A DNA stretch of 64,000 nucleotides from an uncultured Gammaproteobacteria bacterium (GCA_963729605.1 CAVSNY010000006.1:384001-448000), one strand, 5' to 3'; positions 26,342-63,891 are shown, counted from the first letter of the stretch. Numbers and translations: made by a program. Notes: a model not told the origin generated them from the letters alone.

Positions 26342-26346
26342 ATAAA

Positions 26347-26480: not shown

Positions 26481-26494
26481 TTGGGGAAACAACC

Positions 26495-32516: not shown

Positions 32517-32573
32517 ATCTCCCTCCCAATAACCGAATGTCTTCCTCTGGTGGGAAGTTATAATAAAACGTAA

Positions 32574-33604: not shown

Positions 33605-34098
33605 ATGACAGGAAACGAGTGGAAGACATACGAAGAAGTCGCAACATTCCTCCTTCATCAGTTTGCAGAGCACTTCGGCCTTGGCCGTTTTGAGGGCAAG
33701 CAAGTCGTCCCTGGAGAAAGCGGAACCAAATGGGCGATGATGCAAAGGGGTGCGCGGAAGATGGCAAGCAATTCGTCATAGTCGAATGCAAGCGGTACCC
33801 CAACAGAGGTATCAGCCAAGCAATCGTCGCTTCCTTGGCGTGGACAATTCAGGATACAGGCGCGGCTGGCGGCGTCCTTGTTTCACCAGTCGGATTTCAG
33901 GATGGCGCGAGGAAGATCGCTGCCGCCACAACAATAAGTGAAGTCACGCTCAGGGAAGACTCTACAACTACTGACTACATGCTTAAGTTCCTCAATAAAA
34001 TTTTCTGTGGCGTCTCAGACAACATCAGCATTACTGAGAGTATCTCTATTGTCATCCAAGATGAGAGCGGCAATGTCATCGAAACTCGCCGTGGGTAG
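33605..34098 (+). pseudogene. Mrr-like PD-(D/E)xK endonuclease, frameshifted near 33737
   Basis: WKTYEEVAT...GESGTKW joins (I)DAKG...FVIVECKRY...GVLVSPVGFQDGA if one base is restored. Confidence 0.75.
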
Positions 34099-34282
34099 CT
34101 AACCGGAGTTAGAAAACTCTTTATTTACGGGACAAGAGGGTTAATCGGGATGCATCCAATTACGCTGCCAACCTATACGATTTGAAAGCTGGGATATTAC
34201 CGGGACAGAGTCCAGCGTCAAGCCGAGTTGGATTAAGCGCCATGCCTCATGTCCGATCTTCGGCTCGACATATATCCAGCTG

Positions 34283-37542: not shown

Positions 37543-38375
37543 GAACCTATCTCAAAATTGCCTGAGCAGGATACCGATGGTTGCCAGCTGCACAAACCCG
37601 AGAAAATTCTCGGCGTAGTATTCCCAACGGACCAGGAGACGACGTTGCCATTGAAGCCAGGCAAAGAAGCGTTCCACCAGCCAGCGTCGTTCGTATCGGC
37701 GCAGGCGACGCCCGTCTTGTGTCTTGGATTTTACGCGATTCTGCCGGTGCGGCGAGATCATCTCGATGCCCTCTTGCCGCAATTCCTCGTCCAGTTTGTC
37801 GCTGTCGTAGGCACGATCGCCAATCAGATTTTCCGGCTTCGCTTCGATCATGTAGAACTCGAAACTCAGCTGCACCAGCGTGACTTCATGGTGGTTCGCC
37901 GCATGCGTACTGACCGCCAGCGGCAAGCCGTGACGATCCACAATTGCCATGATTTTAACGCCTTTTCCGCGTTTTGTCGGGCCGATCTCCGCGCCGCCGC
38001 CCTTGGCCGAGGCAAACGTGGCATCGATAAAGCATTCCGATTCATCCAGCACGCCTTCATCGCGCAGCGTGTTGGCGAGAGAGGTCATGACATCACGCAG
38101 CACTTCGTTGCGGCACCAATTCTGAAAACGGCGATGCACCGTTTTGTAGTTCGGATAGCATTGCGGCAGCATATGCCACTGCGCGCCGGTATTGAGAATC
38201 CAGAGAACGGCATCGAGGACTTGACGGGAAGAAATCGGCTTGCGACCTGCGCGCCCCGCCGCAATGTTTTCCTCCGGAAAGTGTTCCCGGATGCGTTCCC
38301 AGTGTTGGTCGCTCAGCCGTAGCATGCGGCAAATTATATGCGATTCTGCTCAGCTTGTGATTTTGAGATAGGTTC
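37543..38375 (-). mobile_element. Complete IS5-family insertion sequence (833 bp)
   Basis: Perfect 16-bp IRs GAACCTATCTCAAAAT (37543-37558 / 38360-38375), with TA on both sides (target duplication). Confidence 0.93.
37552..38325 (-). CDS. IS5-family DDE transposase
   Basis: LWILNTGAQWHMLP..YPNYKTVHRRF, IDAT, GDRAYD, YERRWLVERFFAW. Confidence 0.95.
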   Translation of the reverse strand: MLRLSDQHWERIREHFPEENIAAGRAGRKPISSRQVLDAVLWILNTGAQWHMLPQCYPNYKTVHRRFQNWCRNEVLRDVMTSLANTLRDEGVLDESECFIDATFASAKGGGAEIGPTKRGKGVKIMAIVDRHGLPLAVSTHAANHHEVTLVQLSFEFYMIEAKPENLIGDRAYDSDKLDEELRQEGIEMISPHRQNRVKSKTQDGRRLRRYERRWLVERFFAWLQWQRRLLVRWEYYAENFLGFVQLATIGILLRQF

Positions 38376-47374: not shown

Positions 47375-47470
47375 CAACACGCAAATGACTTTCACCGTGA
47401 TACACTGCCGCACATTCCTCCACGCCGTCATGCAATCTCGCCGCGGACCGCAACTTCGGGAAATTGATTG

Positions 47471-48223
47471 ATGCCCACACCCCATAGTCCGATGCAAAAT
47501 CATCTTCTCGCCGCGTTGCCCGCTGCCGAGTTCGGCCGTTTGTCGCCCCATCTGGAACTGGTGACGATGCCGCTCGGTAAAGCCCTTTACGAATCGGGCG
47601 GCCGTCTGGAACATGTTTATTTCCCTACCACCTCCATCGTGTCGCTGCTGTACGTATTGGAAAACGGCGCATCAGCGGAAATAGCGGTGGTCGGCTATGA
47701 AGGAATACTGGGTATCTCGTTATTTATGGGTGGCGAAACCACACCCAGCCGCGCGGTAGTGCAGAGCGCGGGACACGGTTATCGCCTGGAAGCGCATCTA
47801 CTGAAACAGGAATTCAACCGGGCCGGGCCGGTGCTGCGTTTGTTGCTGCGTTATACCCAGGCGCTGATCACCCAGATGACGCAGACCGCGGTATGTAATC
47901 GCCATCACTCGGTCGAGCAGCAACTGTGCCGCTGGTTATTGCTAAGCCTCGACCGCTTATCCACCGACTCGCTGACCATGACCCAGGAGTTGATCGCTAA
48001 CATGCTCGGGGTACGCCGCGAAGGAGTGACCGAGGCCGCCGGAAATCTCCAGCGCGCGGGATTGATCCGCTACAGCCGTGGCCATATCGAAGTGTTGAAC
48101 CGACCGGGTTTGGAAAAGACGGTATGCGAATGCTACGGTGTGGTTAAACTGGAATTTGATCGTCTGCTTTCAGATATCCCTCGCGGCGATCCTTCTATGT
48201 CCTTGGCCAACCCGGCGCCGTAG
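47471..48223 (+). CDS. Crp/Fnr-family transcriptional regulator
   Basis: QNHLLAALP, HVYFP, QTAVCNRHHSVEQQLCRWLL, HTH TQELIANMLGVRREGVT. Confidence 0.93.
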   Translation: MPTPHSPMQNHLLAALPAAEFGRLSPHLELVTMPLGKALYESGGRLEHVYFPTTSIVSLLYVLENGASAEIAVVGYEGILGISLFMGGETTPSRAVVQSAGHGYRLEAHLLKQEFNRAGPVLRLLLRYTQALITQMTQTAVCNRHHSVEQQLCRWLLLSLDRLSTDSLTMTQELIANMLGVRREGVTEAAGNLQRAGLIRYSRGHIEVLNRPGLEKTVCECYGVVKLEFDRLLSDIPRGDPSMSLANPAP

Positions 48224-48319: not shown

Positions 48320-49024
48320 TCACTGCGCCGGCGCCACCGACAACTCCCGCCGGCCACTCTCGGCCGAATCCGCATCCGGACTATTGCGATCAACCCACTC
48401 TTGACCGCGCCGTGCCAGCCACTCCGCCTCTTCCTTGGGCAGCGGGCCGCGCTTGAGGGTATTCTCCCATTCCCACAACGCGGCGCGGGCGCGCCGCACG
48501 TAATCTTCCGACGCCGGATCCGAAGGTGCGAGATGGATGTAGGTACGCATGGCGCCCAAGGCGACGGGCAGGTCATTCATGCCTTCCGCCGCGACCGCCA
48601 GGCCCCAATAGGCATTGCCTTGATAAGGCCGCAGGTCGACGGCGGTTTGGAAAAAATCCCGCGCCGCGGCGTATTGCTCCAAGCCCAACAGCGCATAACC
48701 CATGTTGACGTATGCCTCCGGCATGCGCGGCGCGAGGGCGATGACCCGGTGCAGGGCGGTGATGGCGTATTCGTATTCGCGGGCATGCAGCATCATCACC
48801 GCTTGCTGGAAGCGTTGGGTGATTTGTTCTTCGCGAGCGGCGCTGGCGTGTCCGCGCGGATCTAGCACCGGGTCGATGCGCGGGGCGACCGTGTCTTCCA
48901 AGGTCGCCAATTCCGGGCTGCGGCTGAGTCCGCCCAGCAGGCCGATGATGGCCAGCAGCAACAGCACTGACAGGAAAGAGGCGACCTTGGGCTGGCCGGC
49001 AATCACGCTATCGAGCGAACTCAT
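48320..49024 (-). CDS. Membrane-anchored TPR protein, last gene of the cytochrome cluster
   Basis: N-terminal TM; TPR motifs PEAYVNMGYALLG and NAYWGLA; overlaps the ccsA stop. Confidence 0.85.
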   Translation of the reverse strand: MSSLDSVIAGQPKVASFLSVLLLLAIIGLLGGLSRSPELATLEDTVAPRIDPVLDPRGHASAAREEQITQRFQQAVMMLHAREYEYAITALHRVIALAPRMPEAYVNMGYALLGLEQYAAARDFFQTAVDLRPYQGNAYWGLAVAAEGMNDLPVALGAMRTYIHLAPSDPASEDYVRRARAALWEWENTLKRGPLPKEEAEWLARRGQEWVDRNSPDADSAESGRRELSVAPAQ

Positions 49025-49878
49025 ATAACGCCTTTATGCGCGGCGGTGCTGTAGAAGGGCGTACCGAAATAGGTGAGGAAGGCGATGATGAAGATCGCGA
49101 TGATGAATACCGCACCGGCCCGCATCGGCAGTCGATAGGTCAAGCGCGCATGGATGGCGCCGCCTAAGGCCAGCCAGGTGAGAAACGACGAAGTTTCAAG
49201 CGCGTCCCATGACCAGTAACGGCCCCAGGCGTCCTGCGCCCACACCGCGCCGGCGATCAGCATGCCGCTGTGAAAGATAAAGGCGAGCAGCATGAAACGC
49301 CACGCCAGGTAATCGACCATGGCGTCATTGGGCAATTGGCGGAACCAAGGTTCCAGACGCCGCACGCCGCGCAGCAACAAAGCGCCGGCTAGACCGGTGC
49401 CGACCAGGCAGAAGCCGAGGAAGAATTTACCGAGACCGACATGCGCCCACAGCCAATTGTTGTAATAGGTGGGCGGAAAGGCGGTGTCGGTGGGTTCGAG
49501 CATCAACACCCACACACCCAGGATCCACATCAAGGGCAAGGCCACTACCGCGCTGGCGCGGATCGCCGGATAACGCCAATAGGCGTAGCTGTAAATGACG
49601 CCGAGGCTGAACAACTGGCTTATCAACAATTCGAAGAGATTGACGAATGGCCCGTGACCGATGCGCATCCAGCGTTCCGCCAAGGCCATCGCCAGCAGCG
49701 CGACGCCGGCGAGAATGAAGATGAACGCCGGGGTTTCGTAGCTGCGATTCACCGCGGCGCCCGCCGCGCCGCCGCGCGTCAGCACCACGCCGCGAATCAC
49801 AATAAAAGTGGCCAAGGCATACGCGGCCATTCCCGCCCACAACCAGGGTAGCTCGGTCATCGTTTTCCACTCATTCAT
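49021..49878 (-). CDS. ccsA: Cytochrome c biogenesis protein CcsA/ResC
   Basis: WWD motif GAVWAQDAWGRYWSWDALE, conserved His (WAHV, AIHA, AAHK), several TMs. Confidence 0.9.
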   Translation of the reverse strand: MNEWKTMTELPWLWAGMAAYALATFIVIRGVVLTRGGAAGAAVNRSYETPAFIFILAGVALLAMALAERWMRIGHGPFVNLFELLISQLFSLGVIYSYAYWRYPAIRASAVVALPLMWILGVWVLMLEPTDTAFPPTYYNNWLWAHVGLGKFFLGFCLVGTGLAGALLLRGVRRLEPWFRQLPNDAMVDYLAWRFMLLAFIFHSGMLIAGAVWAQDAWGRYWSWDALETSSFLTWLALGGAIHARLTYRLPMRAGAVFIIAIFIIAFLTYFGTPFYSTAAHKGVI

Positions 49879-50903
49879 ATTGCACCCCCTTTGGAAGAAG
49901 CGGGATATCTTCCCGCCTTCATTGCCTCGGCGGCCGCCCCGGCCGGCATGCGCGCGCCGAATTTACGCCAGAAATGGACGGACATGCCTATCACGCCGAA
50001 TACCGATATCACGAACAGCCACTGCAAGGTGGGATCGTAAAATATTTTATAACCCATCCAGGTCGACAGGCGTTCATACCGCAACTGTCCGCCGGGTAAA
50101 TTCACGGTCTCGCCCGGCTGTAGTTCGACGCGATCGGCGCCGGTGTTGACCACGAGCGTGCCTTTGGCCTTTTGGCCGTCCAATACCCACGCCGCTTTTT
50201 CCGTTATGCCGGTTTCGAGGCGCAGCCAGAATTTGATCTCCGGCCCACCGGGCGGCTGCCAGGTATTGTCCTGTTTGAATTCGAACAAGGGATAGGCCGG
50301 CATGTGCACCACGCCGGTCTGCGGCTCACCCCGCTCGGGCATCCAGGTCAGCAGCGGCGCGAAACCTTTGTTGAACGAGGTGTAGAAACGATAGCCTTCC
50401 AACACCAGAGGCCGGTCGTCACCGACTATGCGGCGTTCCCAACCGCCTTGCCCGTCCGGCACGCGCACCTCGCTGTGGGTGAGACCGCGTACCATGCCCG
50501 GCGCGTAATCGACGGTATAAGGCCCTTGCACGAAGACCAGTTTATCCAAATTACCCGCATGCCAGGGACCGCGGGTATCGTCGAACAATTCGTCGGCGGA
50601 AAACGGGGTGTCCTGCACCATCTCCACATGGGCCTCCAAGTGGGTGAGACGGCCTATCGCGGCCAATATCACCACGCCCAGCAGCGCGATATGAAACGTG
50701 AGCAGGCCGCCGCGGCGATTGATCCGCGGGTTGGTGATGATGGCGGCCAATAGATTGACCGCCAAAAACGCCATGGGCACCACCAGCACCCACACCGAGG
50801 TCGTCACCGGGTTGCCATAACTCAACCCCGCGCCGATGGCCAGCAACACCATGCCCACCAAGGTGAGCCGCAGGGAGGCGAGAGGTCTCAGGACGGCATT
50901 CAT
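49875..50903 (-). CDS. Cytochrome c biogenesis protein ResB/CcsB-like
   Basis: LASLRLTL N-terminus, TM His (FHIAL), periplasmic domain with PLVLEGYRFY, YDP then TM; coupled to ccsA. Confidence 0.8.
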   Translation of the reverse strand: MNAVLRPLASLRLTLVGMVLLAIGAGLSYGNPVTTSVWVLVVPMAFLAVNLLAAIITNPRINRRGGLLTFHIALLGVVILAAIGRLTHLEAHVEMVQDTPFSADELFDDTRGPWHAGNLDKLVFVQGPYTVDYAPGMVRGLTHSEVRVPDGQGGWERRIVGDDRPLVLEGYRFYTSFNKGFAPLLTWMPERGEPQTGVVHMPAYPLFEFKQDNTWQPPGGPEIKFWLRLETGITEKAAWVLDGQKAKGTLVVNTGADRVELQPGETVNLPGGQLRYERLSTWMGYKIFYDPTLQWLFVISVFGVIGMSVHFWRKFGARMPAGAAAEAMKAGRYPASSKGGAI

Positions 50904-53587
50904 GGAAGATTGTTGCAGGTTTCTTCACCGTTGCCGTTCATCCACGTAATACCTCGCTTGCCATTGCCCGGCGCGCCGGCTGAACCGCAACTGACCGGCG
51001 TCCATTCACCGCTGCGTTTGAAGTTGACCACCTTCAGCACCGAGCCGTTGTAATACGGCCCGCGGTAATAACGCTGCGGGCTGGGCGTGCGCACCTGAGT
51101 GCCCGCCGGCAAACCGGCTTCCAGTCCCACGTCGTTCAAGTTGACCAGGAAGTTTTTATTCTTCCAGCCGTGGGGCACGGCGATATGGCAGAAATTGCAG
51201 CGGAAATTGCGCACCACGTCTTCCTTGGCGTGACCGGTATGGAGATTGACGTTGGGCACGCCCACGCAAGACGCATTACCGGTGCTGCGCCGGAAACCGC
51301 TCTGCAAGGTTTGATTGCCGGCCAAAGGACCGGCGGGAAATGCTTTGCCGTAGTAATCGTAATTATGGCAGCGGAAACACAAGGCGTCGGGGGTGGCCGC
51401 GCCGGTATTGTCGTTCCACGGACCCTTCAGAATAAAATCATTGTTCGAACCGTGCGGTCCCCAGGAATTGCCTTGCGCACCGCCGCGCGGCACGGCGCCG
51501 TCATTGACGTCGGTATCCGAACCATGGCAATCGGTGCAATACATGGTCTGGGTACCTACGCCCGCGTTGAAAGGCGTTACCCAGACATCGGGACTATTGA
51601 TGCTGCGTACCGCGATCGTGCGCCCGGTGTCCTTGAGCGCGGGGTGCCAGGACCGATGATTGTTGTCCACCAGATTGACGCAGTTGCCCTGACTGTCACG
51701 ATAACCCGGCCAATTTTCCGAAGTCGCGTAATTGGCGTCGGTATAGGTGTCCTGGCATTCGCCTATGGCACCGGTGAAGAACGCGCCGGTCGGTGTAGTG
51801 GGAGTGCCCTCGCCTTTGTGATCGTCCGGCGATTGATATTCCATGGCCTGATTGGTGTATTGGAACATCGCGTTGGTCCCCGGCGGCGTACCGCCCCGGA
51901 AGGATCCCAGGTTGGGCGGTGAATCATACGCGTTGTTGGAGTGGCACTTCATGCACACCTGGTATTCGCGAGTGACGTAAGGCGCATTGACGTCGGTGCT
52001 GCCGCCCACGCCGGGATCACCGCGTTTGATCTCGAAGATCGTTGGCTCGCTGCCGAACTCGGTCGACGGCCAACCGCCCGGTTCCACGCCGGAAATACCG
52101 CGCAATACGCCGGAAGCCAAATTGGTGTGGATACCGCCGGTGGCGGCGAGCTGACTGGCGGTATGATTGTGGGTGCCTTCCTCCGGGTCAGGTATGTTGG
52201 GATCATCGTTGAATAACCGATTGCGGATCACCCGATGGGGATTGTGGCAGTCGGTACATTCCGCATGGCGGTTGTTGGGATCGCCTTTGCCCATGTGGAG
52301 AGTGGATTCCACGAAATCTTTACCGCCTTGCTGGCTCCTGAGCGGGCCGGTGCCAATGTCGTGCATCTCGCGCCCGGCCGGTTGATCGGCGCTGGCGATG
52401 GGCATGTGCCGGGCCATGGTGGTGAAGTCGGTTTTAATGTCGGGCACGCCGAAGCCGGGGCGGGTGCTTTGGGTGCCGCCGGTAGGACCGCCGCGCAGCA
52501 CGTCGCCGTCCGCCGAATGACAGGCGTAACAGGTTTCTTCGATGGCCGGTTGTCCCCCATGACGGAATTTGGCGCCGCTCGCGGTGATCGCCGGCGGGCC
52601 GTCGGCGCCTTCACGCAGAATGCGCCGCGAGCCTTGCACGGTGTGGGGATCATGGCAATTCAAACAGGCCGCCTGCCACACTTGGATGCCGCGGGGAAAT
52701 TCGCGGAGATCGGCCGCGGCATCTTGGTACTCATAGGTGGCGACGGCGGAGCTGGCGTGAGCCGAACCGACCCAGCCCGCCTTGTCGTGGCAGCCCAGGC
52801 AAATGATGTCGTTCTCGGCGTTGAACTGGCGATCCACCGGCTCTGCTCTCTGAAAGCGGTTCGCCCGCAGAAACTTGATATTTTCCCCCGAGGTATCGCG
52901 GATATGGGGATCGTGACAACTGACGCATTCCAAGCGATTTTCTTCCAAGGGCAGCAACGGCGCGGGCTGGCCTTGCACCCGGTCGCCCACATGGGCAACC
53001 ATAGCGGGATCATACAGCTCACCGTCACGCTCGGCTTGCGCGCTGTCGTAGGTAAAGGAGATGGGATGGTCGTTACGCAAATCCACGCCCAATCTGCGGG
53101 TGAAGCCGGTGGTGGATCCCATGCCTTCGGGAATGGTATCGCCCGGTCCGATGCCCGGGCCGGTGAAATCGATATTGGGATCTTCGACGCGATTGAGCAC
53201 ATTGACCGCGCCCAGGGCGAGGGTGCCGTCATGGCAGGATAAACACAATTTAGACTTGGCGCGCGGCTGATCCAGATCGATCGCGTCGAGCGAGCCGGAG
53301 GAATACGGCGTATAGGTGGTACCGGAGAGTTTGCGGTTCCACAACGGCGCCATGGGCGCCTTGGTCGCGCCGTGCGGCGTGTGACAGAAGGCGCATATCT
53401 GCGACTCGCTGCTGGCGGCGGCATTGCGTTGCGCGCCGTCGGGCAGGATGGGGATCACCGTCGCGGAAAAATTGTGCCTGGTGTTGCGGATATCGGAAAT
53501 ACGTTCGGCCTGCGCCGGCAGGGCGGATAAAATCAAACACGCAGCGGTCAGCGCGAGGATGCACCCGTTTCGCAGCGTCCGTATCAT
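50900..53587 (-). CDS. Undecaheme c-type cytochrome (UetJ-like)
   Basis: Signal peptide ending AQA; 11 CxxCH: CAFCH, CLSCH, CVSCH, CLGCH, CLNCH, CYACH, CTDCH, CMKCH, CTDCH, CFRCH, CNFCH. Confidence 0.95.
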   Translation of the reverse strand: MIRTLRNGCILALTAACLILSALPAQAERISDIRNTRHNFSATVIPILPDGAQRNAAASSESQICAFCHTPHGATKAPMAPLWNRKLSGTTYTPYSSGSLDAIDLDQPRAKSKLCLSCHDGTLALGAVNVLNRVEDPNIDFTGPGIGPGDTIPEGMGSTTGFTRRLGVDLRNDHPISFTYDSAQAERDGELYDPAMVAHVGDRVQGQPAPLLPLEENRLECVSCHDPHIRDTSGENIKFLRANRFQRAEPVDRQFNAENDIICLGCHDKAGWVGSAHASSAVATYEYQDAAADLREFPRGIQVWQAACLNCHDPHTVQGSRRILREGADGPPAITASGAKFRHGGQPAIEETCYACHSADGDVLRGGPTGGTQSTRPGFGVPDIKTDFTTMARHMPIASADQPAGREMHDIGTGPLRSQQGGKDFVESTLHMGKGDPNNRHAECTDCHNPHRVIRNRLFNDDPNIPDPEEGTHNHTASQLAATGGIHTNLASGVLRGISGVEPGGWPSTEFGSEPTIFEIKRGDPGVGGSTDVNAPYVTREYQVCMKCHSNNAYDSPPNLGSFRGGTPPGTNAMFQYTNQAMEYQSPDDHKGEGTPTTPTGAFFTGAIGECQDTYTDANYATSENWPGYRDSQGNCVNLVDNNHRSWHPALKDTGRTIAVRSINSPDVWVTPFNAGVGTQTMYCTDCHGSDTDVNDGAVPRGGAQGNSWGPHGSNNDFILKGPWNDNTGAATPDALCFRCHNYDYYGKAFPAGPLAGNQTLQSGFRRSTGNASCVGVPNVNLHTGHAKEDVVRNFRCNFCHIAVPHGWKNKNFLVNLNDVGLEAGLPAGTQVRTPSPQRYYRGPYYNGSVLKVVNFKRSGEWTPVSCGSAGAPGNGKRGITWMNGNGEETCNNLP

Positions 53588-54651
53588 GCGCCCTCTCTCA
53601 GGAACTGAAGTATGACCACCCGGCCATTAAAACTGTCGGCGATGTAGACCCGGTCGCGGTGATCGGTCCACACTCCCGCCGGCAGATAAAATTGCCCGAG
53701 CCCCCCGCCCGTACCGCCGATCGGCAACAATAACTCACCTTCGGGGTTGAATACTAACAAATAATCAAAATACGATTCTACCACATAGACATTGCCGTCT
53801 TTATCCACGCCGACGCCCTTGGGGCGCGGCATGTCGCCCACGAATATCCCGCGGCGGCCGAACACTTGCAAAGGCTCGCCATCGGCGGACACCACCTGCA
53901 CCCGGGCGTTGAGGGTATCCGTCACATAGAGCCGATTATCGGCGAAGCTCAAATATGTGGGGGAGTTATATTCACCGGCCGCCTCGCCGCGGTGACCGAA
54001 GGTTTTCACCAATTCGCCGCCGTCGCTGAATACTTTGATGGCGTGGCCGTGGGTGTCGGCCACATAAATCCGGCCGTTCTCCGCATCCCGCGCCACGCCC
54101 GTGGGCCGCACCAACTGGTCTTTACCAAGAATGCCGCGCGGAACACCGTCTTTATTCAAACGGACCACGTAACCCAGTTCCGCGTCGGCCACCAGGATTT
54201 CGCCGTCGGCGCCCAACGCGATCCCGATCGGGGCAACGAACCGGACATTGTCGCCGGCCATCTCCCACACCCGCAAACTACCGGCCTGCTCATCGAACAC
54301 ATAGACCGCTTGGCGGCTGACGTCGGTGACATACACCCGGCCCGCCGGGTCGGTCACTCCGCCCTGCGGCCGCTGCAAGACCACCGGCACATGTTTGGGC
54401 GAGGTCAAGCCGACCAGCCACTTCAAAAAGCGCGTGCCGCTGGACCCGAAACCTTGCTCGGGGACGTGGATATTTTGTTCGCCGACGAGCTCGCCCACAT
54501 ACTGATACCGCGGCGTCTCGGGCGGCGCGGGCCACACCGCCGTGAAAGGCGGATCGGGCTGATAACGCAGCGTGCTGTGGGTCGGCGCGCATCCCGCCAA
54601 TATCGCGGACGCGACCAACAACCCCGCCGCGAACTTGGCACGTCTCACCAC
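53584..54651 (-). CDS. NHL-repeat beta-propeller lipoprotein (UetI-like)
   Basis: LAGC lipobox; WPAPPETPR; six P.G....G..YV.D repeats. Confidence 0.9.
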   Translation of the reverse strand: MVRRAKFAAGLLVASAILAGCAPTHSTLRYQPDPPFTAVWPAPPETPRYQYVGELVGEQNIHVPEQGFGSSGTRFLKWLVGLTSPKHVPVVLQRPQGGVTDPAGRVYVTDVSRQAVYVFDEQAGSLRVWEMAGDNVRFVAPIGIALGADGEILVADAELGYVVRLNKDGVPRGILGKDQLVRPTGVARDAENGRIYVADTHGHAIKVFSDGGELVKTFGHRGEAAGEYNSPTYLSFADNRLYVTDTLNARVQVVSADGEPLQVFGRRGIFVGDMPRPKGVGVDKDGNVYVVESYFDYLLVFNPEGELLLPIGGTGGGLGQFYLPAGVWTDHRDRVYIADSFNGRVVILQFLREGA

Positions 54652-54667
54652 ACGACACCCCCCTTAT

Positions 54668-55723
54668 TTATTGTTGCGTTTTGAATCCGCCTGCCGAGAT
54701 CTTGAACACTTGGATACGGCCGTTGAGACTGTCGGCCACGTATAAAGACCCCCCATCCAGCCACACGTCGCTCACGCCGTTGAAGCGGCCGGGCCCCACC
54801 CCGGCGCCGCCAAGGGTCGCGACCAACTTACCTTGCTCGAATATCCGTACGGTGTTATTAAAAAAGTCGGAGACGTAAGTTTGATTATCGGCGTCGACCG
54901 CCACGGCATTGGGAAACACCACGGTATCGGGATCGAAGGCGTATTTGAACGCGCCTTCCTCCGAGAGGACTTGGGCGCGATGGGCGAAACGCGCGGTGAC
55001 ATATACACCGTCGGGACCGCGAGCCATGGAGGTGATATTCAAGAATTCACCCTCGCCTTCACCGCGGCCACCCAGGGCGCGCCACAAACCGCCCGCGCCA
55101 TTGAAGATCAACACGTGATCGAGCACGCCGTCGGCGACGTAGACATCGCCGGTGGTCTCGTCCACCGACACCGCCACCGGCCGCCGCAGATTCATGGAAT
55201 CCTGGAAGGTGGCCTCCAGACGGCCATTGCGATTGAACTTGAGCACCTTGCCGCCGACGCTATCGGCGAGATAAAACGTGCGGTCGCCGGTGACGAAGAT
55301 ATCCGCCACATCGCCGACCACCAGCCCGCGCAAACTGACCAGCACTTCCTGGGTTCCGGAAATACGATCATAAAGGATCACCTGCTGCTGATCGGCATCG
55401 ACCACGTACACCCAGTGATCTTTGGCCGCCACCGCCACCGGACGGCGGAAACGCGCATCCTGCAAGAGCACCAGGCCTTCCGTGTCGCCGGTCATCACCG
55501 GCCGCAGCTCGCCGTTGCCGAAAAAGGCGTTGCCGGTCCGGCCGCCACTGATGCTTTCTTCAAAATAAATTTGGGTCGAACCGGTCTCGGCGACCACCAC
55601 GCCTTCGGCGCCCGAGGACATGGGGGTGCCGCCGAACATGGAACATCCGTTCAGTAGCCAGGTGCTGCCGATCAGCAGCGCGGTCAGCGCAGCCCGGCGG
55701 AATCGCGCGGTACGGAGTGGCAT
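54668..55723 (-). CDS. NHL-repeat beta-propeller lipoprotein (UetH-like)
   Basis: LNGC lipobox after the ATG at 55723; repeats PVAVA..YVVD, GDVYVAD, LYVADSLNGRIQVF. Confidence 0.88.
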   Translation of the reverse strand: MPLRTARFRRAALTALLIGSTWLLNGCSMFGGTPMSSGAEGVVVAETGSTQIYFEESISGGRTGNAFFGNGELRPVMTGDTEGLVLLQDARFRRPVAVAAKDHWVYVVDADQQQVILYDRISGTQEVLVSLRGLVVGDVADIFVTGDRTFYLADSVGGKVLKFNRNGRLEATFQDSMNLRRPVAVSVDETTGDVYVADGVLDHVLIFNGAGGLWRALGGRGEGEGEFLNITSMARGPDGVYVTARFAHRAQVLSEEGAFKYAFDPDTVVFPNAVAVDADNQTYVSDFFNNTVRIFEQGKLVATLGGAGVGPGRFNGVSDVWLDGGSLYVADSLNGRIQVFKISAGGFKTQQ

Positions 55724-56286
55724 CGTCCACAATTCATGGTGGGAGGGAAGGCGACCTTGCCATGGCAAACACCGCAGTATTTGCCTTGGATGATGTCCGA
55801 CATGGTAACCGGATTTGCCCCTTTCTGGGGAAGAAAAATCGCGGGATGGCAATTGGCGCAGGTCAACCATTCCGTGTGGGCCAAATGGGGAAAGCGCACG
55901 AAGGGCATGGAACCGGTATTCTTGAAAATGATGTCGAAGTCGGCGACATACATATCCTTGTCGCCCAGCTTGCTCTGCCGCGCGTCGATCATGCCCTTTT
56001 GCAGCACTTGCACCCAATCGATGATGCCGGCGGCGTCGCGCGGGAAATCCTTCATGGATTCCACCGGCTCTTGGAAAATGGTGACGGCGCTGTTGGTGGG
56101 ATCGTGGATACCGTCTTCGATGACGGGCACCACCTCACCTTCGGTTTGGAAGTGCAGGCCCTTGGTCCACACCGGGCCATCTTCCGCGTGCGCCACGACG
56201 GCCCAACCGAAAAACAGGGCGATGGCCACAGCGAAATATCCGCGGAGATTATTCTTAAACGCGTATCGCTCGACGCCTTTATTCAT
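55684..56286 (-). CDS. Periplasmic triheme c7-like cytochrome (UetG-like)
   Basis: Signal peptide ending AHA; VRFPHLAH, CANCH, CGVCH, CGRCH. Confidence 0.92.
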   Translation of the reverse strand: MNKGVERYAFKNNLRGYFAVAIALFFGWAVVAHAEDGPVWTKGLHFQTEGEVVPVIEDGIHDPTNSAVTIFQEPVESMKDFPRDAAGIIDWVQVLQKGMIDARQSKLGDKDMYVADFDIIFKNTGSMPFVRFPHLAHTEWLTCANCHPAIFLPQKGANPVTMSDIIQGKYCGVCHGKVAFPPTMNCGRCHSVPRDSAGLR

Positions 56287-56408
56287 GCTGTCCCCATTTG
56301 GCATGCCACGCCCCTGCGGGCGTGGGCTCGGGTAATATAACGTGTTTTCGAGACAAGTCACACTCAAAAACGCGCGCTTGTCCGCGCCACCCTCGGCCTA
56401 CGGGACGA

Positions 56409-58028
56409 CTATTGCACACCCGCCAGCCGCAAAGCCCTTTGTATCCTTTCGGTCGCCGCCTGCATCGCCATCACGGCCATTTTGTGATCGCCCTTGGCCG
56501 CCAATCCCAAGGCCTCGTCATGAACCTCGGTGGCGCGACCGGTCAGTTCGTGCATCATGGTCACCGTTTGCGGCGCCGGACGGCGTTGCTCGATGGCCAC
56601 GGGCACCAGTTCCACGTAACTGCGGTAACGGGACAGCTCGAACTCATATTCATCTTTAGGCGAGGCGAAGTTCTTGTCATAGACCACGGTCTGCGAGTGC
56701 AACATCGCGCTCAAGGCCGCGGTGATCAGCTCATTGGCCGATTCCAGCCGCTTGGCCGCGCCTTCGTGATCGCCTTTGCCCGCCAGGCTTTCCGCCTCGC
56801 TCAGCAGCTTGTCGTATTTGGCCTTGTCCAATTCCTCGCCCGCTTTACCGGGCTTCATGCCCTGCGCCACGTTTTTCTGGTAAGAGGCCTTAAAACCGCC
56901 GACCTGTTCCAGCAAGGCGGCGTAACGGGCTTTGTGGTCCACCGCCGGTTGCTCGGGAACTAAACGGGTGGCGGCATTCATCATCCGCAAGGCCTCGTCC
57001 ACCGAGCCCATGGCCTGGTTATTATCACCGGCGGCGAGCGCGGTACGCACGGCGATCAACTGCTCCTTCGCCCCGGCGACCAAGGCTTGCGCCTCGGCGT
57101 TATTACTGGCGGCCACCCGCTTGGCGGAGGCGGACGAGCCGATCAGCATATCCGCGAAACTCAGCTTCTGCTTCACTTGCTCCGCCGTATAGTTGCGGAC
57201 TATCGGGGTCTCTGCCGCGGGCAGCGCGGGCGGCGCACCCAAGCTCACCTTTTCCCCAGCGTTGACCACGTGAATCCTGCCACCCATATAAGCGTGGTTA
57301 CGGCATTCGTAATACACCTCGTCCGGTGTCGTGGCCGACGGTGTAAAGGTCGCGTCGCCCTTGAAAATAAACTGGCCGGTGATACCGTCGGTCAAGGTGC
57401 CCGCACCGCGGCCCACCGGGCTGGTCGTGAAATAAAAATCGTGCATCACCCCGGTGTCCAAACTAAACGTGTAGGTTACGCCGCGGGTCAGCACCAGCTC
57501 TTTGCCCTGCACGCCGTCCGTCACGAACGCCATGTCCGAACCACGGCCGAAATAAGGGTGACTGGCGTCCTTGGGTCCGGCGACCAACTGAAAAGTTCGC
57601 GGTGTACGATCAGCCACTACGGTGACCGGACCGGGGCGTTGCGCGGCCGGCACGCTTGCCGCGGGTTTGGACGGGACCGGGCTGGGCGCCACTACGGCGG
57701 GGGGCGCGACTACCGGCGCAGGCGCCGCAGCGGGCGGAACGGCTTCGGCGGTTGGAACAACGTCGGCGGGTGGCGCGGATAAATCGGTTTTATTTTCCGG
57801 CGCGGTCTGCGGTGATTCCTCTACCGGCGCGGACGGGGCCTCCGTGCTGCCGGCCTCCGGTTGCGTGAGGGCGTCGTCCGTGGTGGTGGCGACTACACTC
57901 GGCGATTGCGCCGACATGACCGGCGCCGGCGCGGCGGTCTGCGCGACCTCTTTCTTTTCACCGGTGGACACACACGCCGTCATCGCCACCGCGATCGCCA
58001 GACATAACAATTTACGCTTTGAGTTCAT
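56409..58028 (-). CDS. Lipoprotein: Pro/Ala linker + cupredoxin-like domain + helical repeats (UetF position)
   Basis: Lipobox MTAC; low-complexity linker; MHDF...YYECRNHAYMGG; three A.GD...A helical repeats. Confidence 0.8.
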   Translation of the reverse strand: MNSKRKLLCLAIAVAMTACVSTGEKKEVAQTAAPAPVMSAQSPSVVATTTDDALTQPEAGSTEAPSAPVEESPQTAPENKTDLSAPPADVVPTAEAVPPAAAPAPVVAPPAVVAPSPVPSKPAASVPAAQRPGPVTVVADRTPRTFQLVAGPKDASHPYFGRGSDMAFVTDGVQGKELVLTRGVTYTFSLDTGVMHDFYFTTSPVGRGAGTLTDGITGQFIFKGDATFTPSATTPDEVYYECRNHAYMGGRIHVVNAGEKVSLGAPPALPAAETPIVRNYTAEQVKQKLSFADMLIGSSASAKRVAASNNAEAQALVAGAKEQLIAVRTALAAGDNNQAMGSVDEALRMMNAATRLVPEQPAVDHKARYAALLEQVGGFKASYQKNVAQGMKPGKAGEELDKAKYDKLLSEAESLAGKGDHEGAAKRLESANELITAALSAMLHSQTVVYDKNFASPKDEYEFELSRYRSYVELVPVAIEQRRPAPQTVTMMHELTGRATEVHDEALGLAAKGDHKMAVMAMQAATERIQRALRLAGVQ

Positions 58029-58224
58029 ACGTCTCCTCGCCGAATCTCATGGCCATACCCAGCCGCAAAGCGTCCGCCGACCCGGTTCATCTCGAACTCA
58101 GTCCAGATGAAATTTACCTCCTGGGCAACGGTGTTGCTCACAGTTTGTCCGTAAAACACGGTGTCAAAAACGGGCTAAATGCGGCGGCGCCACAATCACT
58201 TGTGGCGCCGCTTGCGTTATCGGA

Positions 58225-58911
58225 CTAACGCCAGGGATTCTTAAGCGTGGCGTCGCTCAACGGCGGCGACCAATCCGCGGGCTTGGGCTTGGAGTGGCAC
58301 TTGGAGCAGGTCTTGGTGGTGATCGGGAAAGAAACCTTGCCATGACACACACCGCACTTCTGTCCCAACAGAATGGCCGACATATTGATTTGGTTGGCCC
58401 CTTTCTGCGGGATGAAGATGGCGGGATGACAGTTGGCGCAGGACAGCCATTCGGTGTGTTGACGATGGGGGAACACCACGTCCGGCACCGAGGCCTTCAC
58501 CTCGCGGACGATATCCATGTCCATCACGAAGGGCTCTTCGCTGGAATCGATACGGTCCCAGCGGGGTGAGAGCTTCTTCTCGTCGATGGCCTTCACCCAG
58601 TCGACATGATTGCCGAACTCGGTGGTGGGCAGACCTTTATAGGCCTCCTTAGGCGGCTGGAGAATATGGGTGCCTTCGTTCTCCGGATCGTGATAGCCGC
58701 TCTCCGGCGGCGCCGCGTTGGGATCCTTTTCCTTCTTCAAATTGCGGTTGAAGGTGTTGGAGGACGAGACATCGGCGAGCATCAAGCGTTCGCCGGGCGC
58801 CGCCTGCTGCATGGCACCACTAAACAGACCCGCGTCCGCGGCGAAGGCGGAAGCAGAAACCAGCAGGGTCAACACCGCTGATCCTACAAAGATTTTCAAT
58901 TGTTGTGTCAT
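58225..58911 (-). CDS. Periplasmic triheme c7-like cytochrome (UetE-like)
   Basis: Signal peptide ending AFA; VVFPHRQH, CANCH, CGVCH, CSKCH; GAGGAG RBS. Confidence 0.92.
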   Translation of the reverse strand: MTQQLKIFVGSAVLTLLVSASAFAADAGLFSGAMQQAAPGERLMLADVSSSNTFNRNLKKEKDPNAAPPESGYHDPENEGTHILQPPKEAYKGLPTTEFGNHVDWVKAIDEKKLSPRWDRIDSSEEPFVMDMDIVREVKASVPDVVFPHRQHTEWLSCANCHPAIFIPQKGANQINMSAILLGQKCGVCHGKVSFPITTKTCSKCHSKPKPADWSPPLSDATLKNPWR

Positions 58912-58935
58912 GACCACGCTCCTCACATTGACCGG

Positions 58936-59382
58936 TTACTGTTTGGCAGGCTGTTGTGGAGCGTTGAGCGCCTTATAAGGTGGCGACACTAGACGCTGCA
59001 CGGTGCTCCCGTGAATGTGGGTCGGCGTGCCAGGTATGCCGGAATGGCACATATTGCAGTTCTCCACGGACCAAGCCACCTCCCCGTTATGGCAAGCGCC
59101 GCAGAATTTACCGTCGATGATCTTGGCCATGGTGATCTTGTTGCCGCCGGCTTTGAACTCGAATCCCAGGTCGGCATGACAGACCTTGCAAGTGAAACGA
59201 ATACGATGAAACCAGTGCGGGAATACCACGGGACGCATACCGGCCGCGTCGGCGTAATTATTAATGATCACATCGGCATATTCCGCTTTGGCGGGGGTCA
59301 TGGCCAGCAGGGCCAGTCCCGCTAACACCCCCAAAATGGAAAATCTCCATTTGATGCTACGGTCGGCTTTGTAGGACGTCAT
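58936..59382 (-). CDS. Periplasmic triheme c7-like cytochrome (UetD-like)
   Basis: Signal peptide ending AKA; VVFPHWFH, CKVCH, CGACH, CNMCH; GAGGAG RBS. Confidence 0.92.
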   Translation of the reverse strand: MTSYKADRSIKWRFSILGVLAGLALLAMTPAKAEYADVIINNYADAAGMRPVVFPHWFHRIRFTCKVCHADLGFEFKAGGNKITMAKIIDGKFCGACHNGEVAWSVENCNMCHSGIPGTPTHIHGSTVQRLVSPPYKALNAPQQPAKQ

Positions 59383-59460
59383 GCACGGTCTCCTCGGTTA
59401 ATTTGACGTATTATAATTAATCACCAGCAAACGTGGTAATGGTTTCAAAGAGCAACCCCA

Positions 59461-61212
59461 TTAAAATCGGCGCATCACGCGAAAGTATAAGAGCTGCGAA
59501 GCCTCGTGGCCGTTATCCATCCATCTGAAACTCAGGCTGGCGTCCACCAATCCGATGGTGTAATTCAGGCGGTTTTCCCATTCGTTGCGATCCAAACCCT
59601 CACCCGTGGAGGCTTGCGAGAGCCGCAGGTCGGAGTTGAATTGCAGGCGCGGAATACTGAACAGGGTTTGCTGAAGATAACTGATCTGACCGGTGGTGGT
59701 GGTCACCGAGCCGTCATTGGCTCCACCGGAGAAATCGCGCACCACCGTCTGCAACGTCAAATGGCCCGACAACGTGCTGCGCGCACCCAAGGCCTGATAA
59801 CGCGAGGCCTGCAAATTCACCAGCTGCTGCTCATCGCTCAGATCACCGAAATTACGCGAATCCGACAAGGTGAGTTGCACCAGGGTGGTCGCACCCTGAG
59901 TGGACGACTGATTCCAGCCCAAGCTTGCGCTGTGATCCAGGCGATGCTGAGTGGCCTCATCACCGGTGGTCAACACCTCGTTGAAGGCCTGAGTCAGACC
60001 CACGCGCAAAGACGATTGCGGGTCCAGCATCCACATCCTCTGCGCATCGTGACCCAATGAGGCCTGTAACGACTGGACGTTTTCATCCACGTCGCTCTGG
60101 TTTTCCAGCGCGCCGCTGACATACCACTGATACGTAAAACTCCGCCATTCGATCAGATCGGATTGCAGCAGGGCGCCAAGTCGCTGGCGATGCAGGGTTT
60201 GATTGGCGCCATTGATATCCGACTGACTGAAATTGGCGCTGCCGTCAAAGCGCAGCCGTTTCGAATATTGATAGAAGGCGCCCGCCGTCGCGCCGAAGCT
60301 GGCTTGATCGCTGGATTGCGCGGAATTTTCGCCGGCCATGGTATAGGCGCGCGCGCCCGCGCTGACCGTCCAGCGTTTATCGACCGGCCGCCAGAACGTG
60401 AAGCTGGATACCTGGTTGATTTCCGTGGTGACGGTATCCACCAAGCCGGTCGCCCCTTCGAAGGTGGTATCGAGATGGTAATGGCTGGCCTTGGTGTCGA
60501 GCCGGATATCCTCGTTGGGGAAATAATAATGATCGACGTCGAGAATGAAATTTTCTTGGTGGCGATCGGTGCGCGACTGATCGGTGGTTTCTATATTGCC
60601 GCGGAACAACAAGCGCTGGCGGACCGGCCGCCAGTCCAATTCCACGCCCATAATTTCGTTTTCATAGGTACCGCTCAGGTCCGAATCCCAGGTGCGCGCA
60701 CCATATCGCAACTGGGCGCGATGGCCTTCTTCGGTGATGTACGATTGCCGCAAATCCAAATTGGTGGTTTGGTATTCCGAACCGAACACCCGCACCAGCG
60801 GGTTGTAGACCACGGTATTGTCCACCCGGCTGTCGGTGGCTTGATACAACAAGCGGAAAGGGGTGCGGCTGTCCGGCAACACGTTGAGCATCAGGTCGCC
60901 GGAATACACGTCCGAGGTGGTGCTGGTGCTGGCGTTGCCGTCGTCCAGGTCCGAGCTGTCCTTGGCCAGGGTGGCGCCGCCCTCGACGGTGGCGAACCAC
61001 GGCTGCCAGATATAAGAGCGTAAGCGCAGATTTCCCAACAACTGGTTGCTGGTGGCGTCGGTGGTATCGGTGCTGAGCGAACGGAAACTGTAACCCACGC
61101 TGCCTGACACATCCACGGGCAAGGCGCGCGCCGCGGGGCACACGGACACCAGCGCCACCAGCGCCAAGCCCTGGGTGACGTGAGATGCGAACGCAGCACA
61201 GACCCGTCTCAT
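59461..61212 (-). CDS. Large outer-membrane beta-barrel (UetB/C-like)
   Basis: Signal peptide ending ARA; about 580 aa of Ser/Thr/Gln-rich amphipathic strands; C-terminal LYFRVMRRF ends in Phe (BAM signal). Confidence 0.85.
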   Translation of the reverse strand: MRRVCAAFASHVTQGLALVALVSVCPAARALPVDVSGSVGYSFRSLSTDTTDATSNQLLGNLRLRSYIWQPWFATVEGGATLAKDSSDLDDGNASTSTTSDVYSGDLMLNVLPDSRTPFRLLYQATDSRVDNTVVYNPLVRVFGSEYQTTNLDLRQSYITEEGHRAQLRYGARTWDSDLSGTYENEIMGVELDWRPVRQRLLFRGNIETTDQSRTDRHQENFILDVDHYYFPNEDIRLDTKASHYHLDTTFEGATGLVDTVTTEINQVSSFTFWRPVDKRWTVSAGARAYTMAGENSAQSSDQASFGATAGAFYQYSKRLRFDGSANFSQSDINGANQTLHRQRLGALLQSDLIEWRSFTYQWYVSGALENQSDVDENVQSLQASLGHDAQRMWMLDPQSSLRVGLTQAFNEVLTTGDEATQHRLDHSASLGWNQSSTQGATTLVQLTLSDSRNFGDLSDEQQLVNLQASRYQALGARSTLSGHLTLQTVVRDFSGGANDGSVTTTTGQISYLQQTLFSIPRLQFNSDLRLSQASTGEGLDRNEWENRLNYTIGLVDASLSFRWMDNGHEASQLLYFRVMRRF

Positions 61213-61513
61213 TGTTATTATCGCGCGCCCCTCAGTGACATATCCCCTCGAAGCCTCCACCCGGCGCTCCCCCGGATGGCGAGCTACAACGCGCGCGCGG
61301 ACATTGCCCCCGTCCGCCGTCGTGCGCATTGCCGCGCGCCGTAAATTTTTTCACCTTAAGCGACCTCGCACCTCAATGCAAGATCACTCGCCCTCAACGA
61401 CCGGCGCCACTCATTTTTAATCGCCTAGCGGCGCCCACTCTCCCTTGCCCGCCCTGATGTCGCCCGACAATCCCTCCTTGATCGGGACTGAAAATTAATA
61501 CATCGGCCGCAAT

Positions 61514-62329
61514 TTATTTATTATGACAAGTTAAACACACGGCGCTGCCCGCTGGGTCAACGCGAAGGAAAGTGGGGGTCTCATCCACGTGGGGATCATG
61601 GCAGGAGCCGCACTCCACATAAGGCTGCGCCTCGCCCGCATACGCCCCCCGCGTCGCCACCCGGGTATACAGCTTCATATCGGTACGTTCGAAGGATTGA
61701 GTCCCCTCGGGGGTATTGACCCACCACACCCGGCTGGTGCCCATGATCTCTGAATTGGCGGGATGAAAATCCCGGTCCGCGCCCGGTCCGCCCGCGTTCG
61801 ACAGTGAATAACCACCACCCGCGTATTGAATACCGATAGGATGGTCGTTGGTGAGATCCTTGCCCAAATTAGTGATCACCGCCGGCCGGCCGATGCGGCC
61901 TTGCGCGGGCCGCGCCTGTCCGCTCCAGGCCCCGTTGCGAAAACCGGGCACCTGCACGCCGGAGCCCGGCTCGTTGATCAAGGTATCCATGGCTTGCGTG
62001 CCGTCGTGGCAGGAAAGGCAGGCGACCGAGACCGAACCTATCGGCTCGATGGACCCATCGAGGGTGGTGGTGCCGAGTTGATCGTAGGTTTCGTAGCCGG
62101 TGGGGTCGATGTTGCGGTTCCATAATGGAACGGCCGCGCTGGCGTTGGCCCCATGAGGCGTATGACAAAATACGCAGATCTCCCGCGTGCCGTCGATATT
62201 GCTCACGGCATTCAGCCCCCCCGCACTCAAGTTGTGCTTGGTATTAAATACGCCGCCGAGGCTCACGCCCCCCGCCAACCACAGCAGCGTCGCTCCGGCA
62301 AAAACCAAAGCGCGATAACCGGTTTTCAT
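61514..62329 (-). CDS. Tetraheme cytochrome c, OmcE-like (UetA position)
   Basis: Signal peptide; NTKHNLS, ICVFCHTPH, PLWNR, CLSCHDG, NLGKDLTNDHP, ECGSCHDPH, FLR, CLTCHNK. Confidence 0.9.
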   Translation of the reverse strand: MKTGYRALVFAGATLLWLAGGVSLGGVFNTKHNLSAGGLNAVSNIDGTREICVFCHTPHGANASAAVPLWNRNIDPTGYETYDQLGTTTLDGSIEPIGSVSVACLSCHDGTQAMDTLINEPGSGVQVPGFRNGAWSGQARPAQGRIGRPAVITNLGKDLTNDHPIGIQYAGGGYSLSNAGGPGADRDFHPANSEIMGTSRVWWVNTPEGTQSFERTDMKLYTRVATRGAYAGEAQPYVECGSCHDPHVDETPTFLRVDPAGSAVCLTCHNK

Positions 62330-62663: not shown

Positions 62664-63710
62664 TTATTTCGAAGAAAATTTATGGTTGATACCCAATGAC
62701 AGGGCCGACGCATCCTGGCCGGTCACCGAGTTCAACCTGGTCAAGTCATAATTGCCATTGTCGCCATTGCTCATCAGGTTGTACATCGCGTACAACTCGG
62801 TGTTCTTGGTGAAGTTGCGAAACACGCCCAAGGCGAAATGGGTGGCGCCGGAATCGGCCTCCGAGTCTTTTTCATCGGCCATGGCGACCGAACCCTTCAG
62901 CGTATAACCCTCCAGCTTATGGGCCACGCTCACCAGAAAGGCATTGCGCTGATTGTCGGCGCCGCCCTCATCGGCGCTTTCAAAAATCGCCCCCACCGTG
63001 GTGGGACCGAAGGCATAGCTGCCGCCCACCTTCATGGCCACCGCATCGTCGCCGTTGGTGTGATAGGCATTGAGCGACTCGTAAGCGGCGGTGAGGTACC
63101 AGGGACCGCTGTTGTAACTGCCGTTCACGCTGTAGACATCGCGATCGCTCTACCGCGTGGTCATGGGCAGATCGTCATCGCCCCGATGATCGGCAAACAC
63201 ATAGCCCAGCATCGCGCTGAAGCCGTTCATGCTCGGCGTCGTGTAGATGATAATGTTGGAGGCGCGGCGATCGAACAATTTATTGCCGTCGTCCACGCTG
63301 CCGATGATGGCGTTGAAATCGCCCTTGGTCTCGGCAAAGATATCCAGCTTGGAGGTGGCCCTTTTATAGGGGGTATCGTGTTTGCCCGCCAGCACCTGAC
63401 CAAATCCGCCCGTCAGACCCACAAAGGTGTTGCGCTGGCTGCTGAACGCCGCGCCGTCGTCAAAATCCACCTGCTGCTCGATCTGCCACAAGGCGGCGAG
63501 TCCGTTACCCAAATCCTCGTCGCCCTTGAAACCCAGACGGGAATCGTAGCTGGTCAGACTAATGGCGCTGTCTTCATTGCCCGCCGTGGGGTCATTATTG
63601 TTATTGAAATCCAACGAGACATAAGCCGCCCCATACACCTCCACGCCGGCCTGCGCCAACGGCGCCATCATGGCAGCCACGACACCCGCGGCGATCATAT
63701 GTTTATTCAT
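62664..63710 (-). pseudogene. General trimeric porin (Porin_4 type) interrupted by an in-frame TAG at 63150-63152
   Basis: MNKHMIAAGV...AQA, SRLGFKGDEDLGNGL, RNTFVGL.GGFG; the frame continues after TAG as SDRDVYSVNGSY...GINHKFSSK. Confidence 0.85.
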
Positions 63711-63891
63711 TATTCCCCCTCGACTATATTGAACCCCGTCTAAATCAACCCCGTCGATCAAAAACCGCCTTGCGCCGCGCGCTGGTCTGATGTTGATATC
63801 TTCCCGTGAAAAATCAGCACGGTAATCGCTCAACAGTCTAACAGTAGCGCATAGCCGCCTTTGTCACAACGCTCTCCTGCATGCGTTTCTC

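Follow-up and report, generated by a model that had tools for sequence, protein, structure and literature searches.

The uetABCDEFGHIJ-ccsAB-nrfG cluster was named in Candidatus Tenderia electrophaga by Eddie et al. (bioRxiv 10.1101/2022.05.06.490989). On the cathodes where Tenderia grows, the genes of its triheme cytochromes are among the most highly expressed. The Uet proteins are usually modelled as a porin-cytochrome conduit, as stated in the original prediction made for the DNA studied here, and papers of 2023 and 2026 still draw them so. In anaerobic metal reducers, filaments of the cytochrome OmcE have been observed. OmcE, a large barrel, two multiheme cytochromes and two β-propeller lipoproteins make up the smallest omcE cluster, which has resB/ccsB next to it (mBio PMC13712944). 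Here we analyze a uet cluster in a 64,000 nucleotide stretch of DNA, the window, from an uncultured Gammaproteobacteria bacterium (GCA_963729605.1 CAVSNY010000006.1:384001-448000). The locus is almost certainly a Tenderiales-type uet cluster with OmcE-family units, and it is best explained as what corresponds in proteobacteria to the omcE nanowire cluster.

The original prediction had read the cluster as a cytochrome-nanowire assembly and electron-uptake machine, an interpretation that is partly supported. The novelty claimed for it was overstated. Eddie et al. had already suggested that UetA or UetJ may form conductive polymers, which they linked to the conductivity of the community, and OmcE homologues accompanied by a porin and a propeller had been reported in the Pseudomonadota (mBio PMC13712944). 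No paper making the link between UetA and OmcE by name was found in the literature searched. Two points were missed by the prediction: the absence of uetB, and an OmcE-like module in UetJ.

OmcE-type units in UetA and UetJ

All 12 co-oriented genes that had been predicted were confirmed as open reading frames (ORFs) on the minus strand at 48320-62329. Five of them encode cytochromes, with 24 CxxCH motifs in total. The remaining 44 ORFs of the window (14,398 amino acids) contain three, so the concentration of heme motifs in the cluster is not due to chance. Matches to Pfam and NCBIfam backed the gene families given beforehand. The genes are listed below in the direction of transcription.

61514-62329, minus: uetA, tetraheme c-type cytochrome of the OmcE family; 4 CxxCH; Sec signal peptide, no lipobox
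61213-61513: gap of about 300 nucleotides between uetA and uetC, the position of uetB in related loci; no uetB gene here
59461-61212, minus: uetC, 583 amino acids, predicted 28-strand outer-membrane β-barrel without a plug, C-terminal Phe; the ORF extends to 61329, and the later start (61212) is favored by the alignment of homologues
58936-59382, minus: uetD, c7-type triheme cytochrome with a signal peptide; 3 CxxCH; PF14522 4.1e-16; TIGR04257 68.6 bits (cut-off 40)
58225-58926, minus: uetE, c7-type triheme cytochrome with an N-terminal extension; 3 CxxCH; PF14522 8.8e-12; TIGR04257 62.8 bits
56409-58028, minus: uetF, lipoprotein of 539 amino acids with a Pro/Ala-rich linker, a cupredoxin-like domain and a helical C-terminal domain of about 270 amino acids
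55684-56304 (or to 56367), minus: uetG, c7-type triheme cytochrome; 3 CxxCH; PF14522 1e-12; TIGR04257 69.5 bits
54668-55723, minus: uetH, NHL β-propeller lipoprotein, lipobox read in the translation; NHL 4.2e-9; DUF5128 six-bladed propeller 4.8e-9
53584-54651, minus: uetI, NHL β-propeller lipoprotein (lipobox); NHL 6.2e-26
50900-53587, minus: uetJ, undecaheme cytochrome, 11 CxxCH; OmcE-type unit at residues ~30-270, followed by a 7-heme extension
49875-50903, minus: ResB-like (CcsB-type) membrane protein of System II cytochrome c biogenesis; PF05140 2.2e-9
49021-49878, minus: CcsA-type System II heme-handling protein; PF01578 5.5e-25; TIGR03144 110.7 bits, below the cut-off of 187.6
48320-49024, minus: TPR protein (NrfG/NlpI-like) with an N-terminal membrane anchor; TPR_2 1.6e-10

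An OmcE-type filament had been predicted, and UetA is a true homologue of OmcE. A search against all PDB chains returned only two significant matches, 9yuq_N (E 7.8e-28) and 7tfs_A (E 4.9e-24), and both halves of the protein align. These structures are the OmcE filaments of D. soudanensis and G. sulfurreducens, respectively. In an alignment of 54 UetA homologues (50-97% identity) the four CxxCH motifs and the distal histidines H32, H59, H163 and H247 are invariant, which accounts for all eight heme-ligand histidines. The same set of four CxxCH and four histidines was described for OmcE homologues in mBio PMC13712944, where a non-extending 'anchor' is said to need nine histidines. The ninth histidine of the window UetA is not invariant among the 54 sequences, which counts in favor of a filament. 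Five-heme variants of OmcE-like proteins were also described in that paper; of the small OmcE-like proteins, 8/124 carry five CxxCH.

UetJ begins with a second unit of the same kind. Residues ~30-270 align with the whole of UetA, including all four heme motifs (BLASTP, E 3e-22), and this N-terminal module matches the solved OmcE structures with E-values of 1.7e-19 (7tfs) and 3.3e-18 (9yuq). By sequence, the first ~270 residues of UetJ, with its first four hemes, are a second complete OmcE-type unit. Each J-like protein in the related loci begins with an OmcE-like module, and all 16 heme-binding residues are retained in 21/21 of the J modules. In a careful unrooted tree of 111 rows, J modules and tetrahemes are split by a single branch with support of 100/99. 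The J side holds 20 J modules and four J proteins cut by locus ends, and the other side holds all 87 tetrahemes. The J rows of Nitrospirota, Binatota and Myxococcota cluster with those of the proteobacteria rather than with the tetrahemes that accompany them. Eddie et al. credited UetJ with 'no other conserved functional domains', and no earlier description of its OmcE-like unit was found in the literature searched.

Conservation of the cluster and comparison with known systems

The original prediction held that the gene order matched uetA-J. The order of A and C through J does match; uetB, which encodes a peptidyl-prolyl isomerase (PPIase), is missing. The window and Ca. Tenderia share A, C, D, E, F (the cupredoxin), G, H, I, J, the System II genes and the TPR gene in the same order as described by Eddie et al., and except for the PPIase the order is that of the Ca. 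Tenderia locus L068. The downstream ccsA, ccsB and TPR (nrfG) genes are present, as in Tenderiales-type uet clusters (PF01578, PF05140, TPR_2), and the TPR gene NrfG is listed at the same place in the Tenderia cluster (bioRxiv 10.1101/2022.05.06.490989). UetA is 71-72% identical to its counterparts in two Ca. Tenderia loci. In the careful tree it falls in a 6-row group (support 96/80), and among the rows closest to it by tree path are those of the two Ca. Tenderia loci and of three further metagenome-assembled genomes (MAGs) from gammaproteobacteria. The Ca. Tenderia barrel was also predicted to have 28 strands (bioRxiv 10.1101/2022.05.06.490989), but it is only 36% identical to the window UetC. 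The clusters also end differently. Ca. Tenderia has batDBA after the TPR gene, whereas the window has a convergent Crp-like regulator, a DUF4398 protein and an OmpA-like lipoprotein; batD, batB and batA are not among the ORFs downstream of the TPR gene in the window. The regulator, of the Crp/Fnr type, is encoded at 47468-48223 on the plus strand, convergent with the end of the uet operon and at the bat position of Tenderia.

The uetB product is a SurA-like PPIase whose gene lies directly after the tetraheme gene in 74/80 related loci. A PPIase hidden Markov model (HMM) built from the genes of these loci found no match at E<=10 in a six-frame translation of the whole 64-kb window. The loss of uetB is a variant feature of this cluster.

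Related loci were collected with a genome scan using a diverse alignment headed by an intermediate homologue. At least 636 stretches matched, 619 were confirmed, and the best 80 were analyzed. Almost all of these are labelled as Beta-, Gamma- or Alphaproteobacteria; the others comprise two Nitrospirae, one 'Deltaproteobacteria', one Binatia, one Caldilineales and one Chitinophaga MAG. Downstream features were counted only in loci with enough downstream DNA. The barrel family follows the tetraheme in 63/70 loci, c7 trihemes in 59/66, an NHL protein in 50/57 and a J-like cytochrome in 38/53, a count restricted by the flank of 10 kb. In 50/75 loci another NHL gene is found immediately upstream of the tetraheme. 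The System II genes fall mostly outside the 10-kb flank. In many betaproteobacterial loci (such as L004, L020, L023, L032, L036, L043, L049 and L059) the main tetraheme is preceded, on its upstream side, by a second OmcE-like tetraheme and an additional NHL gene.

Clusters of Myxococcota (L066), Binatia (L070) and Nitrospirota (L060) keep a core of NHL protein, tetraheme, barrel-sized protein, NHL protein and a J-like cytochrome with 10 or 11 hemes (11 in L066). The NHL and J-like proteins of these three loci are clear homologues of those in the window (E 1e-42 to 1e-71). UetI is 35-40% identical to their propellers (E 1e-60 to 1e-71), and UetJ is 30-34% identical to their J proteins. Tetraheme, barrel, two NHL propellers and J-like cytochrome thus form a core that recurs across phyla. 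A compact version occurs in the cultured denitrifier Aromatoleum toluolicum T (L005, 7981-19431), with NHL protein, tetraheme, PPIase, barrel, one c7 triheme, two NHL proteins, ResB and CcsA; no J-like cytochrome is present in that cluster. The cluster is also found in the cultured bacteria Noviherbaspirillum sp. ST 5-3 and Aestuariirhabdus sp. LZHN29, so that with A. toluolicum T there are tractable hosts.

A likeness to the accessory set of the nanowire loci had been noted in the original prediction, and the accessory set of the window cluster is the one given for the minimal omcE cluster in mBio PMC13712944. With a barrel and β-propeller lipoproteins near uetA, the locus passes the operational filter for nanowire subunits used in that paper. 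The omcE clusters of G. sulfurreducens and D. soudanensis (7TFS, 9YUQ) share with the window a homologous subunit with four CxxCH and four distal histidines. By published description of the accessory genes (mBio PMC13712944), they also share a large barrel, two propeller lipoproteins, extra multiheme cytochromes and resB/ccsB nearby. The window adds three c7 trihemes, the cupredoxin lipoprotein and the TPR protein, and its UetA is ~40-50 residues longer than OmcE of Geobacter and Desulfuromonas, with an insert before heme 3. While the omcE hosts are anaerobic metal reducers, the host of the window is an aerobic-type autotroph with RuBisCO. OmcE filaments have been observed in Geobacter and Desulfuromonas, whereas the window system is known from its genes alone.

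The osc (omcS companion) locus of G. sulfurreducens follows the same logic, with a cytochrome gene beside paralogous cytochromes and beside genes of which OscH is assigned to folding, OscE, F and G to secretion and OscD to morphology (PMC13194489; bioRxiv 10.1101/2025.11.06.686851). OmcS is a hexaheme without sequence similarity to OmcE, and the likeness of osc to the window is by description only. Shen et al. (2025) reportedly found a prolyl isomerase in OscH and a propeller-like OscD. The window lacks a counterpart of the osc PPIase. In Desulfovibrio ferrophilus IS5 multiheme cytochromes are co-expressed with two NHL propellers and tied to electron uptake from solids (Sci Adv PMC5815863). 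As described there, its cytochromes belong to other families and its nanowires are membrane extensions, not cytochrome polymers.

The classical conduits MtrCAB, MtoAB and PioAB resemble the window in having a large outer-membrane barrel beside multiheme cytochromes. Their barrel has 26 strands, as against 28 in UetC. The AlphaFold2 (AF2) model of UetC (predicted local distance difference test, pLDDT, 88.1) has 28 strands, short loops and no plug. Foldseek matched it only to generic large barrels of 22-26 strands, the best being MtrB (6r2q_B) with a TM-score of 0.39. UetC has no Pfam or NCBIfam match, and its barrel profile found no PDB sequence match. PF11854 (MtrB/PioB) matched neither the window UetC nor any of the 47 members of the UetC family at E<=1. 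The nearest named ESM Atlas clusters are annotated 'TIGR03016 PEP-CTERM-associated outer membrane protein', which we take as a lead only. No decaheme of the MtrA/DmsE family is present; UetJ scores 41 bits against a TIGR03508 cut-off of 192.2. None of the Mtr clusters is known to have OmcE-type units or NHL propellers.

The proteins at the barrel position in L066 (10558-12234), L070 (1861-3795) and L060 (11816-13384) belong to a family of their own with 22 proteins. Some of its gene models are longer and carry an N-terminal DUF1670, and one member has a PF11854 MtrB/PioB match. The family aligns with the L060 protein at an hhalign probability of 89%.

A possible heme wire or a porin-cytochrome conduit

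A first clue to the direction of electron flow is the RuBisCO reported by the original prediction, which lies in the window as a cbbR-cbbLSQO group:

22356-28834 (approximate ends): cbbR (minus) and cbbL-cbbS-cbbQ-cbbO (plus), form I RuBisCO

The longest ORF over cbbL, at 23452-24930 on the minus strand, is a spurious antisense ORF with no family match. UetF offers a second clue to the direction of flow. Its lipobox was read in the translation, and it carries a cupredoxin-type H...C-x-x-H-x-x-M motif, which is conserved in the window and 10 gammaproteobacterial or Tenderia-type loci (11/82 aligned rows); elsewhere only the C-terminal domain is found. UetF has no PDB sequence match, and its C-terminal domain has no informative ESM Atlas match. 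Cupredoxins are typical of high-potential chains. UetF was called a cupredoxin by Eddie et al. as well (bioRxiv 10.1101/2022.05.06.490989). RuBisCO and the cupredoxin are both in keeping with inward electron flow.

We propose the following chain of events. Holo-UetA would be exported through UetC, or seated on it, with the help of the UetH and UetI propellers. Outside the cell it would form an OmcE-type head-to-tail heme chain, with a histidine from each unit serving as ligand to a heme in the following one. The OmcE-like module of UetJ would link this chain to the seven further hemes of UetJ at the barrel. Electrons from a cathode or mineral would pass inward by way of UetA and UetJ to the abundant periplasmic trihemes and the cupredoxin, then to oxidases and to a reverse electron flow feeding the Calvin-Benson-Bassham cycle. 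By sequence, a dedicated System II heme lyase and the TPR protein close the operon. For the polymerization of UetA the odds are roughly even, and it is plausible that a CO2-fixing bacterium has a heme wire. The whole chain, with polymerization, export by barrel and propellers and inward flow, is given a probability of about 0.5.

Several observations weigh against this proposal. An insert of ~75 residues, absent from both solved OmcE structures, separates the third distal-His motif of UetA from its third CxxCH. The OmcE-like family is very large, with 7195/8000 scored candidates and 4124 representative clusters (50% identity) at E<=0.001, so membership alone cannot imply a filament. OmcT and OmcJ, close paralogues of nanowire subunits, are not known to polymerize (bioRxiv 10.1101/2025.11.06.686851). 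No Uet protein is known to have been seen as a filament, and localization is by prediction only (bioRxiv 10.1101/2022.05.06.490989). The UetC family is weakly related to the barrel-position family of the distant clusters (hhalign 39%; 15.5% against the L060 protein). No Geobacter or Desulfuromonas locus is among the best 80 of the 619 confirmed, and the likeness of barrel and propellers to the validated loci is by description. Finally, the window lacks uetB, the chaperone-type gene most tightly tied to the tetraheme elsewhere. Further results come from searches, models and predictions for UetA. OmcE itself was not reached among the 150 best representative matches listed. An AF2 model of UetA from 54 homologues without hemes reached a pLDDT of 48.3, a value that is too low to base a fold search on. 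A dimer prediction with two copies of residues 24-271 and four of the eight needed hemes scored 0.00 against a mark of 0.42, its controls did not fold, and it gave no answer in either direction. The Tenderia orthologue of UetA was predicted to be extracellular by PSORTb (bioRxiv 10.1101/2022.05.06.490989).

The main rival is a porin-cytochrome conduit without a polymer, which we consider a real possibility, if short of an even chance. UetJ would be threaded through or docked in UetC like MtrA in MtrB, UetA would be a monomeric cytochrome on the surface or a 1:1 cap held on UetJ by the OmcE-like interface common to both, and the propellers would do no more than stabilize the complex. This is the published Uet model, in which UetJ is long enough to span the membrane (bioRxiv 10.1101/2022.05.06.490989), and MtrB is the best TM-score match of the barrel (0.39); yet the barrel lies outside the MtrB/PioB Pfam family, and with 41 bits UetJ is far below the TIGR03508 cut-off for a decaheme of the MtrA/DmsE type. 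A stabilizing role for NHL propellers was proposed for the outer-membrane cytochrome complexes of D. ferrophilus (PMC5815863), but proven OmcE filaments are surrounded by the same gene set (mBio PMC13712944). The heme ligands of UetA speak on both sides. A heterodimer of UetA and UetJ would satisfy the heme without its own ligand just as a polymer would, while UetA has the exact eight-histidine pattern of filament-forming OmcE and no conserved ninth.

Two other explanations appear less credible. The same machinery could run outward, as it does for Geobacter OmcE, and release electrons to minerals, electrodes or partner cells. OmcE filaments of Geobacter and Desulfuromonas do serve the reduction of extracellular acceptors, multiheme conduits can be reversible, and related clusters occur in loci labelled with denitrifying or heterotrophic genera (Aromatoleum, Noviherbaspirillum, Ramlibacter). 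Against these stand the cbbR-cbbLSQO genes of the window, the cupredoxin motif of UetF and the nearest named relatives, Ca. Tenderia, a cathode-oxidizing autotroph; outward flow is in our view improbable. It is very improbable that the Uet proteins are not extracellular at all but form a multiheme redox module in the periplasm that acts on a soluble substrate, the barrel being an ordinary solute porin. The c7 trihemes are periplasmic carriers, and the localization of the Uet proteins is by prediction only. However, solute porins are much smaller than a predicted plug-less barrel of 28 strands, the barrel is strictly linked to an OmcE homologue and lipoprotein propellers across phyla, and Pfam and NCBIfam revealed no catalytic domain among the 12 proteins.

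Returning to an inward heme wire, UetJ might itself act as the adaptor that connects wire and conduit. Its N-terminal unit would replace one UetA at the base or tip of the filament and the chain would continue to the seven hemes at or through the barrel, so that an inward OmcE-type wire feeds CO2 fixation. We offer this idea tentatively and think it rather unlikely. If it were true, UetJ would be the 'anchor or tip' cytochrome that workers on OmcE report missing from omcE operons, and an OmcE-type nanowire would run inward, feeding CO2 fixation in an aerobic gammaproteobacterium. Cytochrome nanowires in general would, if the proposed chain is true, cease to be confined to anaerobic metal reducers and would also serve iron- and cathode-oxidizing autotrophs. 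The homology of UetA to OmcE, the second unit in UetJ and the shared accessory set make the question of long-distance electron transport in Tenderia biocathodes testable.

Other features of the window

A scan for promoters and terminators gave no signal: it found 3 promoter-like sites where 7.2 were expected, and 23 terminator-like sites where 18.1 were. Rfam had no match inside the cluster. Directly upstream of uetA is a Gram-negative porin gene (Porin_4/PorB-like, 62664-63833, minus) interrupted by a single in-frame TAG at 63150-63152. The interruption could mark a pseudogene or a read-through site, or it could stem from an error in sequencing.

Next to the cbb operon, at 11712-13973 and 18184-22461 on the minus strand, are copper-related genes. 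They encode a CopA P-type ATPase, a multicopper-oxidase-like protein (20470-21843) and a CopL-like protein. A monoheme cytochrome c gene is located in the same stretch (18184-18651, minus). A low-GC stretch at 31517-34100 (GC 0.47 at 32-34 kb) is next to a tRNA gene and contains GNAT and Mrr-like ORFs. Together with an IS5-family transposase at 37552-38325 it resembles a small mobile islet.

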